Source: an uncultured delta proteobacterium (GTDB lineage: Bacteria > Desulfobacterota > Binatia > Binatales > Binataceae). Taken from it: a stretch of 64,000 bases of DNA. The notes beneath the pieces are model-generated. The model saw only the letters and a list, made by a program, of their open reading frames with translations. It had not been told where the DNA came from and did no database searches. The DNA lies in assembly GCA_963814035.1 (NCBI GenBank), contig CAWFBH010000005.1, forward strand, positions 86,019-150,018, given 5' to 3'. Made by a program: the position numbers and the translations under genes. Positions 7,403 to 22,516 of this stretch are shown here, piece after piece. How positions within the stretch are numbered: position 1 is the first letter of the stretch; each line of letters opens with the position of its first letter.

Positions 7403-8803
7403 GTGGAGTTGGAGGATGTGGTGGCCGCACAGACCGATGACGTCCTGAGACGAGTTCCCCCGCAGAATATCGAAGCCGAGCAGTCGGTGCTTGGCGCGAT
7501 TTTGCTCGAGAACGACGCGATCAACCTCGCGCTCGAAATTCTCGGCCCGGAGGAATTCTATCGCGAAACTCATCGCGAGATTTTCCGCGCGATGATGGAG
7601 CTGTCCGACCACAATCAGCCCGTCGACGCCATCACGCTGACCGACGCGCTGCGTACCAGGGGTGTCCTTGAGCAGATCGGCGGACCGAGCTACATCGCGG
7701 AACTGGCCGATTCGGTCCCGACCTCGGCCAACGTCGCGCACTATGCGCGCATCGTTCGCGAAAAGGCCGTGCTGCGCAGCCTCGCGACGATCGCGACCGA
7801 TATCGCCTCGAGCGCCTACGAAGCGAATGCCGACGTCGACGAGTTCCTCGATACCGCAGAGCATCGCATCTTCGAGATTTCCGAGCGCCGCATCAAGCCG
7901 TCCTTCCACACGATGCCGGAGCTGACGCGCGAATCCTTGCGCATCCTGGAACGGCTCTATGAGAATCGCGAGCTCGTCACCGGCGTTCCGACCGGCTTCA
8001 AGGATCTCGATACGCTCACTGCGGGTCTTCAGCCGTCGGATCTGATCGTCCTCGCGGCGCGGCCCAGTATGGGAAAAACCGCGCTGGCGTTGAACATCGC
8101 GGCGTATGCCGCGATGGATGCGGAACCCAAGCGCGGGGTCGCATTCTTCTCGCTCGAAATGTCGAAGGAGCAGCTCGTCCTGCGCATGCTCTGCTCAGAG
8201 GCCCGGGTCGATAGCGCGAAGGCCCGCGCCGGCTATCTGAGCGAGCGCGATTTTCCCAAGCTCGCTCAAGCGGCCGCGCGGCTTTCGGATGCGAATATCT
8301 TCATCGATGATTCGTCCGACACGACCGCCATCACACTGAAAGCCAAATGCCGCCGTCTCGCGAAAGATAAGAACAATAACCTCGGCTTGGTGCTGGTGGA
8401 TTACCTGCAACTGATGCGCTCGGCGCGGCCGGGCGAATCCCGTGAAAAAGAAATCGCGGAAATCTCGCGATCGCTGAAGGCGCTCGCCAAGGAATTAAAG
8501 GTTCCCGTCATCGCGCTGTCGCAGCTCAATCGGCAAGTCGAGACGCGGCCCGATCGGCGCCCGCTGCTGGCGGATCTTCGCGAGTCGGGCGCCATCGAGC
8601 AGGACGCCGACGTGATCGCGTTCATCTATCGCGAGGAAATGTACAAGGGCAAGGACAGCAAGGAAGCGGGCGTCGCGGAGATCATCGTCGCCAAGCAACG
8701 TAACGGCCCGACCGACACCGTGAAGCTCACGTATCTGAGCCAGTACACTCGCTTCGAGAATTACGCGCCCGCCGATTCCGCCTATGGCGACATGGACGGC
8801 TGA
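7403..8803 (+). CDS. dnaB: replicative DNA helicase DnaB
   Basis: 466 aa. PPQNIEAEQSVLGAILL N-terminal domain, Walker A ARPSMGKTA, LVLVDYLQL, SQLNR and the KQRNGPT arginine-finger region. No intein. Confidence 0.95.
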   Translation: MELEDVVAAQTDDVLRRVPPQNIEAEQSVLGAILLENDAINLALEILGPEEFYRETHREIFRAMMELSDHNQPVDAITLTDALRTRGVLEQIGGPSYIAELADSVPTSANVAHYARIVREKAVLRSLATIATDIASSAYEANADVDEFLDTAEHRIFEISERRIKPSFHTMPELTRESLRILERLYENRELVTGVPTGFKDLDTLTAGLQPSDLIVLAARPSMGKTALALNIAAYAAMDAEPKRGVAFFSLEMSKEQLVLRMLCSEARVDSAKARAGYLSERDFPKLAQAAARLSDANIFIDDSSDTTAITLKAKCRRLAKDKNNNLGLVLVDYLQLMRSARPGESREKEIAEISRSLKALAKELKVPVIALSQLNRQVETRPDRRPLLADLRESGAIEQDADVIAFIYREEMYKGKDSKEAGVAEIIVAKQRNGPTDTVKLTYLSQYTRFENYAPADSAYGDMDG

Positions 8804-8807
8804 CGTT

Positions 8808-9551
8808 CTAGGAGTTGCCCTCGCGAGTGCCGCCCTCGACCGGAGGTTCGGGAGGATCTTCCGCATCGATCAGAGGCTCGCTTGGCGAAGGGTCCGATGG
8901 CGGAGGCTCTGACGCTTCGGACGGCTCTTCGGGAGCGGATTCGGCGCCTTCGGCCTCCAATGCCGCGGCGAGGTCGCGCATCTCGGTAACAGTCTCGACG
9001 CCCTGCGATTCCGCTTCTTCCTGCGCCTTCTGAATCTCCTGGAACTCTTTGAGGTCGGGCAGGCTATCTAGATCCTTGAGCCCGAAGACTTCGAGAAATT
9101 CGGAGGTGGTTTCATAGAGCATCGGGCGGCCCGGCGCGTCCTTGCGGCCACCGATCTTCACCAGGCGCCGCTCCAGCAGGGTTTCCAATACGCCGCCACA
9201 ATCGACCCCGCGCACCTGTTCGATTTCCGGGCGTGTGACCGGCTGGCGATATGCGACGATGGCGAGCGTCTCGAGGAGCGAGCGGCTGAGCCGCGGAGGC
9301 TTGCCGGCGAGCAGCTTGCGAATCTGCGGCGCGAATTCCTTGCGCGTGCGAAGCTGATAGCCGCCCGCCACTTCCTCGACGGTCAGGCCGCGCCCCCCTT
9401 GAGCGTACTGCGAGCCCAACGCGATGAGCGCATTGCGGATCTCCTCCTTGGGCACGCTGTCGAGCACGGCAGCGAGCCGGTTCAACGAGACCGGTTCGCC
9501 CGCCGCGAAAAGAAGGCTTTCGAGAATTGCCTTGAGTCGTTCTTCGTCCAC
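8808..9551 (-). CDS. scpB: segregation and condensation protein B (ScpB)
   Basis: 247 aa. LESLLFAAGEPVS and PVTRPEIEQVRGVD winged-helix repeats, acidic/proline-rich tail, sits downstream of scpA. Confidence 0.9.
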   Translation of the reverse strand: MDEERLKAILESLLFAAGEPVSLNRLAAVLDSVPKEEIRNALIALGSQYAQGGRGLTVEEVAGGYQLRTRKEFAPQIRKLLAGKPPRLSRSLLETLAIVAYRQPVTRPEIEQVRGVDCGGVLETLLERRLVKIGGRKDAPGRPMLYETTSEFLEVFGLKDLDSLPDLKEFQEIQKAQEEAESQGVETVTEMRDLAAALEAEGAESAPEEPSEASEPPPSDPSPSEPLIDAEDPPEPPVEGGTREGNS

Positions 9552-9599: not shown

Positions 9600-10382
9600 C
9601 TAGATTGGAAGCTCGCCGACTTCCTCGGGACCGCGCTCCAGAAAAATCGGGCCATAGCGCACTTCCTGAAATGCCCGAACCGCGCGCCGCCGCACCAGCT
9701 CCAGCAGCGCGATGAAAGTCGCGACCACCAGCGAGCGATCGTCCATGTCGTCGAAGAGCGAAATAAATTCGACGCGCGTGCGTGCGGCTATCGCTTCCAT
9801 GATGCGTGGAATGCAATGGGCGACCGGAATATCGCGCAATTGGATGTCGCGCGGCGCCTTGTCCGCCAGCCGCTTGAGCACCGCGCCCATCGCCTCGATG
9901 AGGTCGAAGAGCGATACCGTGAATTGCGGCGGTGCGCTGCCGTCATCGGGCGCTACGGGCTCGCCCGGCGCCACGAAGACGTCGCGCCCGACGATGTTGC
10001 GCTCGCCCAGTTTATCGGCAGCCTCGCGATAGCGTTGATATTCGAGCAGCCGCTCCACCAAATCGCGCCGCAGATCTTCGACCTCTGCCTGGTCGCCGCC
10101 ATTCGCATGCGGCAGGAGCGCGAATGATTTGATGAGGAGCAGCGTCGCCGCCATAACCAGGTACTCGCCAGCGATGTCGAGGTTGAGCTGGCCGAGCATT
10201 TCGACATAGCCGAGATACTGCTCGGTGATCTGGCTCGTCGTTACGTCCTGCGGGTCGAGCTCGGCCTTTTTGATGAGATGGAGCAGGAGGTCGAGCGGGC
10301 CTTCATAGATCGGCAGGCGGAAGCGCGCGTTGCCGTCGCTCGGAATTTTCATCGCGCCTGGGATGATTGCGCCGTCACTCAC
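9600..10382 (-). CDS. scpA: segregation and condensation protein A (ScpA)
   Basis: 260 aa. Kleisin signature FEGPLDLLLHLIKK-like (YEGPLDLLLHLIKKAELDP), adjacent to scpB. Confidence 0.9.
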   Translation of the reverse strand: MSDGAIIPGAMKIPSDGNARFRLPIYEGPLDLLLHLIKKAELDPQDVTTSQITEQYLGYVEMLGQLNLDIAGEYLVMAATLLLIKSFALLPHANGGDQAEVEDLRRDLVERLLEYQRYREAADKLGERNIVGRDVFVAPGEPVAPDDGSAPPQFTVSLFDLIEAMGAVLKRLADKAPRDIQLRDIPVAHCIPRIMEAIAARTRVEFISLFDDMDDRSLVVATFIALLELVRRRAVRAFQEVRYGPIFLERGPEEVGELPI

Positions 10383-19155: not shown

Positions 19156-20905
19156 TTGATTTCCTATTCTCTCTTCCCGCTGGGGGTTCTGCTCGTCGTT
19201 TTACCCGGCATCTGCTGGTGGACAGCCTTGTTCCCTGACGATTTCGCTGCGGAAAAAGTGGCGTGGGGGAGCGTGCTCGGTTTCGGCGCCGCAGTGTACG
19301 TCGCCTATGTCTGTGCGTTTGCCTATTTGAGCTGGTTCTATCTGGTGTGGGCCGCGATCCTGATTGTCAGCGCCCGCAGCTTCATGCAGCGGTGGGCGCG
19401 ACTAAGGCTTCAATGGCGCGAGGTCGTGGGGCGAGCGGTAACCCTCACGAACCTTGCGATGGTTCTGGTGCTGCTGCTGGTCGTCGGGTTACAGACCGAC
19501 AGCCTGAGGAGCCAGATAGTTCCGCCGGGATGGGACTCCTCATTCCATCTTCTGCTCGCGAAAAAGATCGCGTTGAGCGGGCGCCTCATCCGCGACTGGC
19601 AGCCGTTCCAGAACGCGACGCTCAACTATCCAACCGGAAGTCATCTGCTGATCGCACTGTTCGCGCGATTCTCCGGGGTGTCCCTGCCGCGCACCTTCCA
19701 ATTGCTGATGGTGACCTTCAGCTTGCTTAGCACGCTCGCGATATATGCGCTCGCGGCGGAATATTTTGCCGCACAAATAGCCGGCTTGTACGCAGCAATC
19801 GCCTACAGCTTTTGGGCCTTTATCGGCAGCACCGACTACCTTCGCTGGGGCGGATTGCCCAATCAGCTCGGTATGCTGCTGGGGCTGGGAATATTTGGTC
19901 TGCTGATTCGCCAGGGCGAGCAGCGGAAGCGCGCGGCGCTGATGGCCGTGCTGTTCGCCTCGGTCTGTCTGACTCACCATCATGTCATGCTCACTACCGG
20001 TCTCATTTTGATCGCGCTGACAGGATTCTTCTGGGCCGCCCAGGATCCCGAAAAACGTTATCGAACTACCTTCGCCGCGCTCGCCGGAGGATCTCTAGCG
20101 GCGTCATTTTACCTGATTCCTTACGCCTTGAAGGCAAGCTCGCTAGCCAAAACCGAAGTCTTTCGCGTCTCCGACAGTTGGCCCGTCCTCGGTCCGCTGC
20201 TGGTTGGTTTTGCGCTTTTCGGAGCGACGCTCGATTACTTTCGCAAACCAGTCAGGCCGCATGTATTCCACTTTATTTCGATAACGCTGCTACTGCTGTA
20301 TGCCCTCTTCGGGTGGGTGTATTACTTTTACGAATTCGAGACGCGGGGGGTCGGCTTCGCCGCGTTCACTCCCTCGCGCTTTATCACCGATCTGGTCTAT
20401 TTCCTCAGCCTCTTTGCCGGATACGCCTTTTACCGCATCCAGCAGTATCTCGGCTGGAGGACGCCGATTATGGTCGCAATCGCTTTGTCGCTCGGGTACG
20501 TGAACTATCCGCTATGGGAACAGGTGTTCCTGCCTACCGAAGATCCCGGACGCTTCGCGGCATACGACTGGATCGAAAAAAATACGCCCGCCAACAGCAT
20601 CGTGTTGACTGGCGAATCATGGGCTTGTTACGGCACCTGGCGCCGGACGCTGGGCACCCCGATGCCGGTGTTCGGAGCCGCGCGTGCCGCCGCGCTTCAG
20701 CGTAAAGGTGAATCCGGAGTCGATGACGGACCTTGCGCGCGAGGAACTTCGCGGCACGCAATTGCTGGAGGTGTTCGGGCCTGGTGAGCATTACCCTCAA
20801 CATTATAAAGGGAGACTGCTGTGGACCAATTCGGATGGGCTGGGGAGTGACCGAAGTCTATTCGGGCCGGCCCTAATCCGCGGATTATTTGGCGGAGTTG
20901 AGTAG
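19156..20905 (+). pseudogene. large polytopic membrane protein (possibly ArnT/PMT-like glycosyltransferase fold) with soluble C-terminal domain; one frame break near 20670
   Basis: ORF 19156..20787 has more than 12 TM helices. Its tail turns Arg/Ala-rich nonsense, while ORF 20684..20905 (+1 frame) continues as protein-like VPPRFSVKVNPESMTDLAREEL. The family assignment is tentative. Confidence 0.5.
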
Positions 20906-20924: not shown

Positions 20925-21362
20925 TCACCGCGGGTGCTGCGCGGTTTCGCCGGCGCGGTTGTAGATCACTTCGCCCTTGCGATCGATCACGGTGATGGTC
21001 GGGATGTAGCCGCGGTAGTATTTTGCGATCAGCGGCTGTTGCGAAGCCGAGGGATGGTTGACGTCGACGATTACGAAATCGATCTTGTCGCGATACTTCG
21101 GATAGAGCGCCACCAGCCGTTCCGCCTCGCGATTGGTATTCCAGCAATGCGCGGTGCCGAAAAACATGATGGTCGCACGGTCGCCCGCGACGGTGGCATC
21201 GCCGATGGAGTTGCCGGCAATCGGGAAATTTGAGCTGGAATCATCGGTGAATGAGAGGTCCGGCGCGAGCTTCAGATCACTCGCCGCCCGCGCTGAATGA
21301 AGCACCAAGGGGCATATGGTGAACGCGACAAGCAAAATGGCGATCTTATTTCGCATAAGCAT
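20925..21362 (-). CDS. secreted thioredoxin-fold protein (atypical CWNT in place of CxxC)
   Basis: Signal peptide MRNKIAILLVAFTICPLVLHSARA, TlpA/thioredoxin-like layout (IMFFGTAHCWNT...IPTITVIDRKGEV). Start uncertain (21362 or 21356). The C-terminus may continue to 20885 if a +1 base near 20926 is an error. Confidence 0.5.
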   Translation of the reverse strand: MLMRNKIAILLVAFTICPLVLHSARAASDLKLAPDLSFTDDSSSNFPIAGNSIGDATVAGDRATIMFFGTAHCWNTNREAERLVALYPKYRDKIDFVIVDVNHPSASQQPLIAKYYRGYIPTITVIDRKGEVIYNRAGETAQHPR

Positions 21363-21385
21363 AAGTGCTTTCTTGATTCTTGTTT

Positions 21386-21433
21386 CACAGACTTTGGTCT
21401 GTGGTTTTTCGAGGACACAGGCCAAAGCCTGTG
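21386..21433. promoter_or_regulatory. two 18-bp palindromes (CACAGAC-TTTG-GTCTGTG and CACAGGC-CAAA-GCCTGTG), operator-like
   Basis: Perfect 7+4+7 inverted repeats at 21386..21403 and 21416..21433, centres 30 bp apart, in the 88-bp divergent spacer between the thioredoxin-fold gene and the peroxiredoxin-like gene. Confidence 0.45.
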
Positions 21434-21450
21434 CTATCAATCAAAATATT

Positions 21451-22512
21451 ATGTCTCAGCCTGAATCCAGCAAAGCCAACATTTTTCACGATGTGGTGCG
21501 CAAGATGTTCGGGGGCGAGAAGGTATCGCCCGCGGAATTCCAGGAGTTCGTGAAGGCCCAGAACGATGGCGCCACCAGCGGCCTCAACGTAGGCGAGAAG
21601 ATCCCCGACTTCACGCTGCCTGACCAAAACGGCAAGCAAAAAAGCTTTCGCGACCTCGCCGGCGCCGATGGTTTGCTGCTGGTCTTCACCCGCAGCGCCG
21701 ATTGGTGACCCTATTGCCGCAGCCAGCTCGTGGAGCTGGAACAATCGCGCCAGGGTTTCGAGGCTCATGGGGTGAAGGTCGCTGCCGTGAGTTACGATTC
21801 GCAGGAGATCCTGCATCGCTTTGCCGACGCGCAGCACCTCGGCTATCCGTGCCTCTCCGATAAGGGCAGCGCCGTCATCAAGGCCTTCGGCATCCTCAAC
21901 ACCAACGTTCCCGCCAATCATCCGTTTTATGGGATTCCATTTCCGACCAACTACCTGGTCGGTCCCGATGGTGTCATTCGCGCGAAGTATTTTCTGCCCG
22001 ACTACCAGACTCGGGTCGCATCGTCGGAAATTTTGCTTGATCAGTTCGGCGCGACCGGAGCGAAATCGGTTTCGATCACCGAGGATGATTTGCGCGTAGT
22101 GATTGCACCGACCGCCGATCACACCGTGCCGGGCCGCGAATTGGGCATCGCCGTGGATTTTTCCCTCGCGCCCGGATGGCATGTCTATGGCCAGCCGCTG
22201 CCATCGAATTACACGCCAACCGCGATCGAATTCGAAGGCGATCTCGTTGCGAGCCAGGCGTTCGAATTTCCCACTCCCGAAAAAGTAGAGTTCGCGAATC
22301 TCGGCGAAACGCTGCCGGTTTACCATGGCGACTTTCGCGCCAAGGGTAAAATTCTGGTGCGCTCGGGGCTCAAACCGGGCGACTATCAGTTGAAGGGCAA
22401 GCTGAAGTTCCAGGAGTGCAGCACCGAGATTTGCAAGATTCCACAGTCCGTCGCATTCGAGATTCCATTGAAGATCGAGGCGATGGCGCCGCCCGCGCCG
22501 AAGCCGAAATGA
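21451..22512 (+). CDS. peroxiredoxin-like (AhpC/TSA-redoxin) protein fused to a DsbD-N-terminal-like domain; in-frame TGA at 21706..21708 read as candidate selenocysteine (W-U-P-Y-C)
   Basis: ORFs 21316..21708 and 21730..22512 share one frame. Read-through gives IPDFTLPDQNGK...LLLVFTRSADW-[TGA]-PYCRSQLVELEQ...VAAVSYDS, the redoxin WCPxC context. The C-terminal part (APGWHVYGQPLP...KFQECSTEICKIP) resembles the DsbD alpha domain. Confidence 0.7.
21713..21745 (+). promoter_or_regulatory. candidate bacterial SECIS hairpin
   Basis: The perfect 7-bp stem CCAGCTC-GTG-GAGCTGG (21723..21739) starts 14 nt after the TGA. Possible lower stem ATTG/CAAT (21713-16 / 21742-45). G and U in the apical loop. 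Confidence 0.5.
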
Positions 22513-22516
22513 TAGG

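Follow-up and report, generated by a model that had tools for sequence, protein, structure and literature searches.

An in-frame UGA codon inside a single gene

The stretch of DNA analysed here (64,000 nucleotides, hereafter the window) belongs to an uncultured member of the Binataceae (assembly GCA_963814035.1, contig CAWFBH010000005.1, positions 86,019 to 150,018) and contains, at 21451-22512 on the forward strand, a gene of 353 codons whose interior holds an in-frame TGA at 21706-21708. Two open reading frames (ORFs) meet at this point, one running from 21316 or 21451 to 21708 and the other from 21730 to 22512; they share the same frame, and the gap beyond the TGA consists of seven sense codons (21709-21729). 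The gene ends at a TGA of its own (22510-22512), directly followed by TAG (TGATAG, 22510-22515). A prediction made earlier from the letters of the window (hereafter the original prediction) had singled out this arrangement as a candidate selenoprotein gene, and our re-reading of the sequence returned the same coordinates for the TGA and the two ORFs, the same shared frame and the same seven codons. On the comparative evidence presented below, the gene very probably does encode a selenoprotein.

Translation through the UGA from the ATG at 21451 yields a protein of 353 amino acids containing LLLVFTRSADW-[UGA]-PYCRSQLVELEQ, a stretch also given as GLLLVFTRSADW-[UGA]-PYCRSQLVELEQSR. The UGA (21706-21708, +) corresponds to residue 86, which would be selenocysteine (Sec, U) at the first position of a U-P-Y-C motif. 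The centre then reads W-U-P-Y-C, as expected from the proposal that the UGA occupies the first Cys of a W-C-P-x-C redox centre. The resolving residue of the UxxC motif, Cys89 (TGC, 21715-21717, +), is present in all genomic copies recovered by a UGA-motif search, the pattern of which itself demanded a Cys at this position; one Cys-form homolog among the full-length database proteins (P0096) has an Arg in its place. Three orthologs (L001, L003 and L004) are 92-93% identical to the window protein over residues 1-353.

Conservation of the UGA codon and of its flanks

A protein search with the window product returned 1067 relatives. The closest of these (54-93% identity) are nearly all 244-266 amino acids long and start downstream of the UGA, and more distant ones (45-59% identity) are full-length proteins of 353-414 amino acids that read RSADW-C-PYC. 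Altogether, Cys occupies the UGA column in 25 full-length database proteins. In the DNA of two of the shortened hits (L001 and L002), the 85 codons absent from the N-terminus lie immediately upstream and run into the same in-frame TGA.

A genome scan with one representative per species provided 79 loci, mostly from metagenome-assembled genomes (MAGs) of Binataceae and for the rest from Bryobacteraceae, Bryobacterales and Terriglobia. In the window and these loci, which represent about 70 genomes from short- and long-read assemblies, the codon aligned to 21706-21708 is TGA in 74 of 77 copies, and TGC or TGT only in the remaining three (L022, L040 and L069). The lowest pairwise protein identity between TGA copies is 36%. 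Whether homologs carry Cys or Sec at this column had been put forward as a check on the original prediction, and both occur: TGA in nearly all genomic copies, Cys in the 25 database proteins and the three genomic exceptions. TGA-containing paralogs are found in tandem (L053, with UGA at 10238 and 12065; L071, at 5487 and 11603) and dispersed, often two to four per genome, as with L044, L058 and L073 in one MAG. In another MAG, SMAG_U15039, a Sec form (L036) coexists with a Cys form (L040).

We compared substitution rates on the two sides of the UGA, given here as dN over dS (nonsynonymous over synonymous). Between the window and L004 they are 0.036/0.453 for the 85 upstream codons and 0.024/0.613 for the 110 downstream codons; between the window and L010 they are 0.257/1.81 and 0.149/1.94, respectively. 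Both halves are therefore under purifying selection, with dN/dS of about 0.04-0.14, far below 1 on either side of the UGA.

These results bear directly on the simplest alternative, namely that the TGA is a nonsense mutation or a miscalled base in an ordinary CxxC oxidoreductase gene, that is, a pseudogene or an assembly error. Damaged genes do occur in this material, as shown by two frameshifts at 19156-20873 of the window and by a frameshift inside the very same gene in the L002/L037 ortholog. However, a chance event would not account for the same TGA in 74 of 77 independent copies from two phyla, whatever the sequencing technology, nor for a frame that is intact throughout and selected in both halves. 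Because the TGA is conserved, this explanation is effectively refuted, and we give it next to no credence.

A second alternative takes the TGA as a genuine stop separating two genes, one for an 85-amino-acid N-terminal protein and one for a protein of about 250 amino acids carrying the DsbD_N domain described below. Public annotations do divide the gene in this way, with calls of 85 and 224-246 amino acids at L001 and L002, and most of the best database hits (91 of 120) begin after the UGA; such splitting by automated annotation had been anticipated. The division would, however, sever a thioredoxin fold at its CxxC centre, and the Cys forms, which face no such stop, are always single proteins of 353-414 amino acids. 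Moreover, no downstream start is conserved, gene callers choosing a GTG at VELEQ, a GTG at KVAAV or a later ATG, and the seven codons between the stop and the first of these starts are as conserved as the rest. The possibility that the halves are normally separate genes, which the original prediction had named as a point to check, thus finds no echo in the Cys forms or in the selection acting on both halves, and we regard it as extremely improbable.

A hairpin conserved downstream of the UGA

A hairpin of the selenocysteine insertion sequence (SECIS) type, CCAGCUC-GUG-GAGCUGG, follows the UGA at 21723-21739 (+). Its stem pairs 21723-21729 with 21733-21739, its loop is the GUG at 21730-21732, and it overlaps the codons for S-Q-L-V-E-L-E. 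It comprises 7 bp with a free energy of -10.0 kcal/mol, starts 14 nt past the UGA and presents its loop 21 nt past it. The model of bacterial SECIS (bSECIS) elements describes a loop of 3-9 nt, an upper stem of 4-16 bp, a UGA-to-loop distance of 16-37 nt, a minimum free energy (MFE) of -7.5 kcal/mol or lower, and a G within the first two positions of the loop, usually a G followed by G or U (PMC13188914, Fig. 2). The window hairpin lies within all of these limits. An extended lower stem in the MFE structure (UGACCC with GGGUU) was also considered and set aside, as it is not conserved in other clades.

The same hairpin is found in every TGA copy, 20-21 nt from the UGA. Over 68 distinct sequences, 92.4% of stem cells are paired, as compared to 18-36% in controls slid along the alignment, and the covariation score of the hairpin was reached by none of 500 shuffles. 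Two-sided changes affect three of the seven stem pairs: the closing pair is C-G (28), G-C (7) or U-A (1); the third pair is G-C (63) or A-U (5), the change combining in Acidobacteriota a synonymous CAG to CAA (Gln) with a synonymous CUG to UUG (Leu); and the innermost pair is C-G (63) or G-C (1, L081). The stem codons for Q, L, E and L display the lowest synonymous entropy of the gene (0.39, 0.44, 0.00 and 0.39 bits), compared to 0.96-2.08 bits in conserved Leu columns elsewhere, 0.95-1.0 bits in conserved Glu columns and a gene-wide mean of 1.28 bits, while the third base of the loop codon (Val) varies freely (1.06 bits). Orthologs with TGA thus keep the hairpin, as the original prediction would have it, and the frozen synonymous sites together with the compensatory changes indicate that it is under selection at the RNA level.

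The Cys forms provide a complementary view. The QLVEL segment encoded by the stem and loop is altered in 10 of 25 Cys forms versus 2 of 74 Sec forms (p = 1e-5 by Fisher's test, with no correction for phylogeny), with replacements such as QLADL and HLADL in Cys forms of Binataceae, and the stem is broken at the DNA level in the Cys-form loci L022 and L040. These patterns suggest that the constraint on the hairpin relaxes where Cys replaces Sec.

A number of observations weigh against reading the UGA as Sec on these grounds. Judged on the window sequence by itself, the hairpin is barely above chance: the folding of a 71-nt region equals that of shuffled sequence (z = -0.06), and the window has 1812 TGA trinucleotides, 3.1% of which are accompanied by an equally good hairpin with the same geometry. 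The perfect 7-bp stem and SECIS-like spacing originally noticed are thus correct as geometry and consistent with the bSECIS model but of little significance in a single sequence, and the weight of evidence must come from the comparison with relatives. In that comparison, the gap-free stem has only 6 bp and -6.7 kcal/mol in about half of the paralogs, just short of -7.5; the compensatory changes come from few independent lineages, and the shuffle control ignores phylogeny; and QLVEL is intact in 15 of 25 Cys forms, so that its conservation is partly at the protein level. No Rfam family, and no curated bacterial SECIS model in particular, matches the hairpin, whether the window is scanned at gathering thresholds or 21600-21850 permissively; the hits obtained were chance ones only (Xoo5, E 1.4). 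Finally, no tRNA-Sec was detected by ARAGORN in the window and 60 related loci, nor selA, selB or selD by tblastn with Escherichia coli SelA, SelB and SelD (NC_000913.3) in the window and all loci; as this search covered the 64-kb window and about 1.5 Mb of flanking sequence (±10 kb per homolog, 79 loci), it is uninformative rather than negative. We infer that the machinery is present in these genomes because they contain dozens of conserved TGA-containing paralogs. The use of Sec in Acidobacteria is documented (PMC1794560, Table 2), and our literature search found nothing on selenocysteine or selenoproteins in Binatota or Binatia.

Decoding of the UGA

A third alternative accepts translation through the UGA and differs in the amino acid inserted: the codon could be reassigned to Trp or Gly, or be read by a near-cognate tRNA or a Cys-tRNA with stimulation from the hairpin. 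In its favour, four calls from the Joint Genome Institute (JGI; P0045, P0054, P0063 and P0117), among the 120 best hits, print Trp at the Sec position (SADW-W-PYC), a further way in which automated annotation has misread the gene, and searches of the window and of the ±10-kb flanks of related loci did not reveal the Sec machinery. However, the Trp originates from the gene caller. In P0054 (L084 133-1233), the only one of the four whose DNA was read, the codon is TGA, and the Trp in these calls is an artefact of applying to the contigs a code in which UGA means Trp. TGA is the commonest stop in the window (20 of 39 long ORFs) and also terminates the selenoprotein gene itself; the genetic code is standard, and UGA is not reassigned. 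Additionally, the geometry of the hairpin and its G-U loop fit the SelB-dependent bSECIS model, and the recoded position is the catalytic Cys of CxxC, at which homologs show Cys as the sole replacement, which is the signature of Sec. Read-through with insertion of another residue therefore appears very unlikely.

Taken as a whole, the best explanation of 21451-22512 (or of the same gene starting at 21316 or 21337) is that of one selenoprotein gene, in which we have strong confidence. By the mechanism known from bacteria, SelB carrying Sec-tRNA(Sec) would bind the hairpin with its G-U loop and insert Sec at codon 86. Under selenium limitation, translation would probably stop at the UGA.

Domain architecture and redox centres

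Pfam models were run on the product with U replaced by C. Residues 47-178 (21589-21984, +) form an AhpC/TSA (Redoxin) thioredoxin-fold domain (PF00578, E 5.8e-31, 107.5 bits for a cut-off of 26), and the Redoxin model also matches above its gathering score (E 1.4e-19). Residues 225-334 (22123-22452, +) match DsbD_N, the immunoglobulin fold of nDsbD and ScsB-alpha (PF11412, E 3e-9, 37.4 bits for a cut-off of 25). Near its C-terminal end, the latter domain carries a Cys pair, C323 and C328 (FQE-C-STEI-C-KIP, Cys-x4-Cys, 22417-22434, +), that is invariant in alignments of 12, 56 and 48 homologs and is the putative counterpart of C103/C109 of E. coli.

Structural models are in agreement with these assignments. 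An AlphaFold model of the Cys homolog P0007 (mean predicted local distance difference test score, pLDDT, 89; predicted template modelling score, pTM, 0.83) has as best matches in the PDB BcpB of Mycobacterium tuberculosis, ResA of Bacillus subtilis and other thiol-disulfide oxidoreductases. Residues 200-353 of the window protein are modelled as an all-beta sandwich (pLDDT 93.5), the best PDB matches of which are the N-terminal domain of ScsB (6c29, TMq 0.63) and nDsbD (6dps, 6dnv, 1l6p, 1jpe, 1vrs and 1jzd). A sequence search of the PDB with the C-terminal domain alone gave no match; its relatives were found by the fold search. Together with the Pfam score, these fold matches bear out the DsbD-alpha-like C-terminal domain of the original prediction.

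The N-terminal domain is an oxidoreductase of the CxxC-type thioredoxin fold (TlpA/ResA/BCP/Prx-like) with W-U-P-Y-C as its centre. From its place in the motif, the Sec at the first CxxC position is predicted to be the exposed, attacking residue. The gene had initially been described as peroxiredoxin-like, which holds insofar as it belongs to the AhpC/TSA-redoxin family. A true peroxiredoxin (Prx/BCP/AhpC) was rejected, as the S-A-D-W-U segment has Ala and not Thr or Ser at position -3, and the curated models remain far below their cut-offs (BCP 61 bits of 140, PrxQ 41 of 260, PrxU, peroxi_PrxU, 28 of 270). In the NCBIfam scan, no model reached its cut-off with the window protein. A membrane electron transporter of the DsbD/ScsB kind was rejected as well, as the 353-amino-acid product consists of two soluble domains and has no transmembrane beta domain; no gene for DsbD-beta or CcdA is found among the recurrent neighbours of the loci.

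Relation to known selenoproteins and redox relays

Among bacterial selenoproteins, those with a UxxC thioredoxin fold are the most frequent kind. The Prx-like thiol:disulfide oxidoreductase selenoproteins (PF00578, UxxC/UxxU), on record since 2004 and plentiful in metagenomes, are a class first predicted in Geobacter and other Deltaproteobacteria, corresponding to 'Prx-like 1' of the Global Ocean Sampling (GOS) selenoproteome (PMC13188914, Table 1; PMC1794560; PMC2398784). These sources concur with the original statement that UxxC thiol oxidoreductases are an established selenoprotein class. The window gene has both of its defining features, the PF00578 domain and Sec in UxxC, and shares with it the AhpC/TSA thioredoxin fold, Sec at the first position of the motif, the existence of Cys homologs and a hairpin directly after the UGA. 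It differs in its C-terminal nDsbD/ScsB-alpha-like domain with a Cys pair, in the frequent presence of a signal peptide and in its distribution in Binataceae and Acidobacteriota. Members of the class (prototype WP_010940744.1, from Geobacter) are listed as PF00578 without DsbD_N, and it is by these descriptions that the window gene is set apart. The fusions described for Prx-like selenoproteins are to PP2C, to a distant Secretin_N domain and to Unknown_2 (both with Prx-like 2) and to the CxxC-bearing Unknown_3 (with Prx-like 3). Our literature search found no description of a fusion of Prx-like and DsbD_N domains, of an expansion in Binataceae or of an operon link with msrP-msrQ. Accordingly, the UxxC Prx-like class is already known, and these three features are new relative to the literature searched.

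Two other selenoprotein types share part of this architecture. The selenoperoxiredoxins (PrxU, Sec-Prx) have PF00578 and use Sec, but carry the Thr or Ser of peroxiredoxins at position -3 (TxxU/TxxC), whereas the window protein reads S-A-D-W-U-P-Y-C, with Ala at -3, and is of the CxxC type. TsoB (rhodanese/DsbD fusion-like, NF045694, UxxxxU), the only DsbD-related selenoprotein listed (PMC13188914, Table 1), likewise has a DsbD-like part with a redox pair spaced by four residues. In TsoB, however, the Sec lies in the DsbD-like pair and the partner is a rhodanese, whereas in the window protein this pair is Cys-x4-Cys and the Sec lies in the thioredoxin fold; NF045694 does not match the window protein.

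The closest functional parallel is offered by the DsbD and ScsB relays, in which a redox Cys pair in an immunoglobulin fold works with a CxxC thioredoxin fold, as may be the case here. In DsbD, the gamma domain reduces alpha, which reduces CcmG, DsbC or DsbG; ScsB-alpha passes electrons to TlpA and then to the peroxiredoxin PprX (PMC3322552; PDB 1vrs, 1z5y, 6c29). In contrast to DsbD, the window protein has no membrane beta domain, its thioredoxin fold precedes the alpha-like domain (the reverse of the order in DsbD), and its attacking residue is Sec.

Signal peptides and the msrP-msrQ association

The frame of the gene is open upstream of 21451, and translation may start at the ATG at 21316 or at the one at 21337 (MAILFRISISAFLILVSQTLVCGFSRTQAKA...), which would add a signal-peptide-like extension (21316-21450, +). 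The extension is free of indels in L001, L003 and L004, where its hydrophobic stretch is kept, and sister clades have clear signal peptides at the matching place. Against such an extension, substitutions within it show no third-position bias (9/12/8), and it would overlap the start of a divergent gene at 21362.

Many TGA-containing orthologs have obvious signal peptides. This does not extend to the whole family: a large clade (L035-L065, about 48% identity) has none, and a periplasmic role cannot therefore cover all members. The family seems, from these N-termini, to include both exported and cytoplasmic proteins.

In the sister clade at 67-71% identity (L005-L021, L024), the selenoprotein gene begins with MTPRSNFDIKRIMIAAILSAIAGLLAGAQWVSAQE, a clear signal peptide, and at least 15 genomes share the order msrP-msrQ-selenoprotein gene, often together with a neighbouring DUF1223 gene. 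In L010 (5036-8819), for example, the selenoprotein gene is third in an msrP-msrQ operon, its ATG overlapping the msrQ stop (ATGA, 7635-7638), and the DUF1223 gene lies upstream in divergent orientation. MsrP-MsrQ is a periplasmic methionine-sulfoxide repair system, and this linkage supports, for the sister clade, a possible role in the repair of oxidative damage. The window's own clade (the window, L001, L003, L004 and L037) has no msrPQ.

A possible redox relay in the cell envelope

The pairing of domains suggests how the protein might work. The selenol/selenenylsulfide of U86-C89 and the dithiol/disulfide of C323-C328 would exchange electrons within one chain, in the manner of DsbD gamma and alpha, or of nDsbD/ScsB-alpha with CcmG/TlpA and then a peroxiredoxin (PMC3322552). 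The substrates to be reduced would be peroxides or oxidised thiols (disulfides, sulfenic acids), and the cell envelope is the probable site. The envelope is proposed because of the signal peptides in many orthologs and the msrP-msrQ coupling in the sister clade. By analogy with these systems, a fused relay function in the envelope is plausible, at somewhat short of even chances. The sequence comparisons and models show the conserved UGA, the Cys homologs, the constraint on the hairpin, the identity of the two domains and the operon setting in relatives; dependence of Sec insertion on SelB, the place of the window copy in the cell, the way electrons flow and the nature of the substrate are points that we infer.

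A broader proposal, which we make tentatively, is that these genes represent a large and essentially unannotated family of exported selenoproteins, in which a Sec-containing TlpA/Prx-like domain and a DsbD-alpha/ScsB-alpha-like shuttle would form a self-contained envelope reductase, present as several paralogs per genome in Binatota, an uncultured soil phylum, and linked to msrP-msrQ in one clade. Envelope redox repair in abundant soil bacteria would then depend on selenium to a significant and so far overlooked extent. The MsrPQ operon of the sister clade points to a role in the repair of oxidised envelope proteins. With its Sec-UxxC thioredoxin fold joined covalently to an nDsbD-like domain, the protein would also offer a natural single-chain model of the hand-off between DsbD gamma and alpha or ScsB-alpha and TlpA.

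As for annotation, public calls for this family are nearly all wrong, leaving its catalytic half and its selenium dependence invisible in databases for Binataceae and several Acidobacteriota, both common soil lineages. In the uncultured bacteria that carry these genes, UGA is very probably read as Sec, in several paralogs of each genome, which widens the map of selenium use in soil. The finding overturns nothing established; its interest is moderate and for specialists, and its practical value for annotation is clear.

Other features of the locus

A small thioredoxin-like gene lies divergently next to the selenoprotein gene (20925-21362, -). Its product matches Thioredoxin_8 and AhpC-TSA with E of about 7e-4, below the Pfam cut-offs, and has a signal-peptide-like N-terminus (MLMRNKIAILLVAFTICPLVLHSARAA) and a single Cys in its putative active site (AH-C-WNT). 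The divergent thioredoxin-fold neighbour mentioned in the original prediction is thus present, but it is no partner of the family at large: L001, L003 and L004 alone have it as an immediate neighbour, L037 has it at a distance of 2.3 kb, and it does not occur at the remaining loci. We looked for a conserved partner gene more generally and rejected all candidates in the window, as none of its neighbours (the thioredoxin-like protein, a membrane protein, a GT2 glycosyltransferase, a cupin and MutS) is shared beyond the closest relatives. Within ±5 kb of the loci (L035, L011, L047 and others), the recurrent neighbours are a TetR-family regulator (19 loci), a Nu-class-like glutathione transferase (16) and an alpha/beta hydrolase (15), all named by eye from their translations.

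A terminator-like hairpin (TCACAGAC-TTTG-GTCTGTGG followed by TTTTT) occurs at 21385-21404 (+), in the interval separating the divergent genes and within the putative N-terminal extension. It may be due to chance: the scan found three terminator-like sites where 2.4 would be expected, and L003 and L004 do not keep a perfect stem. When the window was scanned for further selenoprotein candidates with an in-frame TGA, the GC-rich DNA yielded nothing but noise, in the form of spurious long ORFs.

Two genes deserve mention for their frameshifts. The L002/L037 ortholog of the selenoprotein gene, on a long-read contig of 4.34 Mb (CAWKOR010000001.1), keeps the TGA and has a frameshift about 150 codons into the gene, probably an assembly indel. 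The membrane-protein gene at 19156-20873 (+) of the window has two frameshifts with respect to the L001 copy, which is intact (548 amino acids, 7461-9107); the tblastn alignment shifts out of frame 1 into frame 2 near 20670 and into frame 3 near 20840. Unlike the conserved in-frame TGA at 21706, this damage is either assembly indel noise or the mark of a pseudogene.

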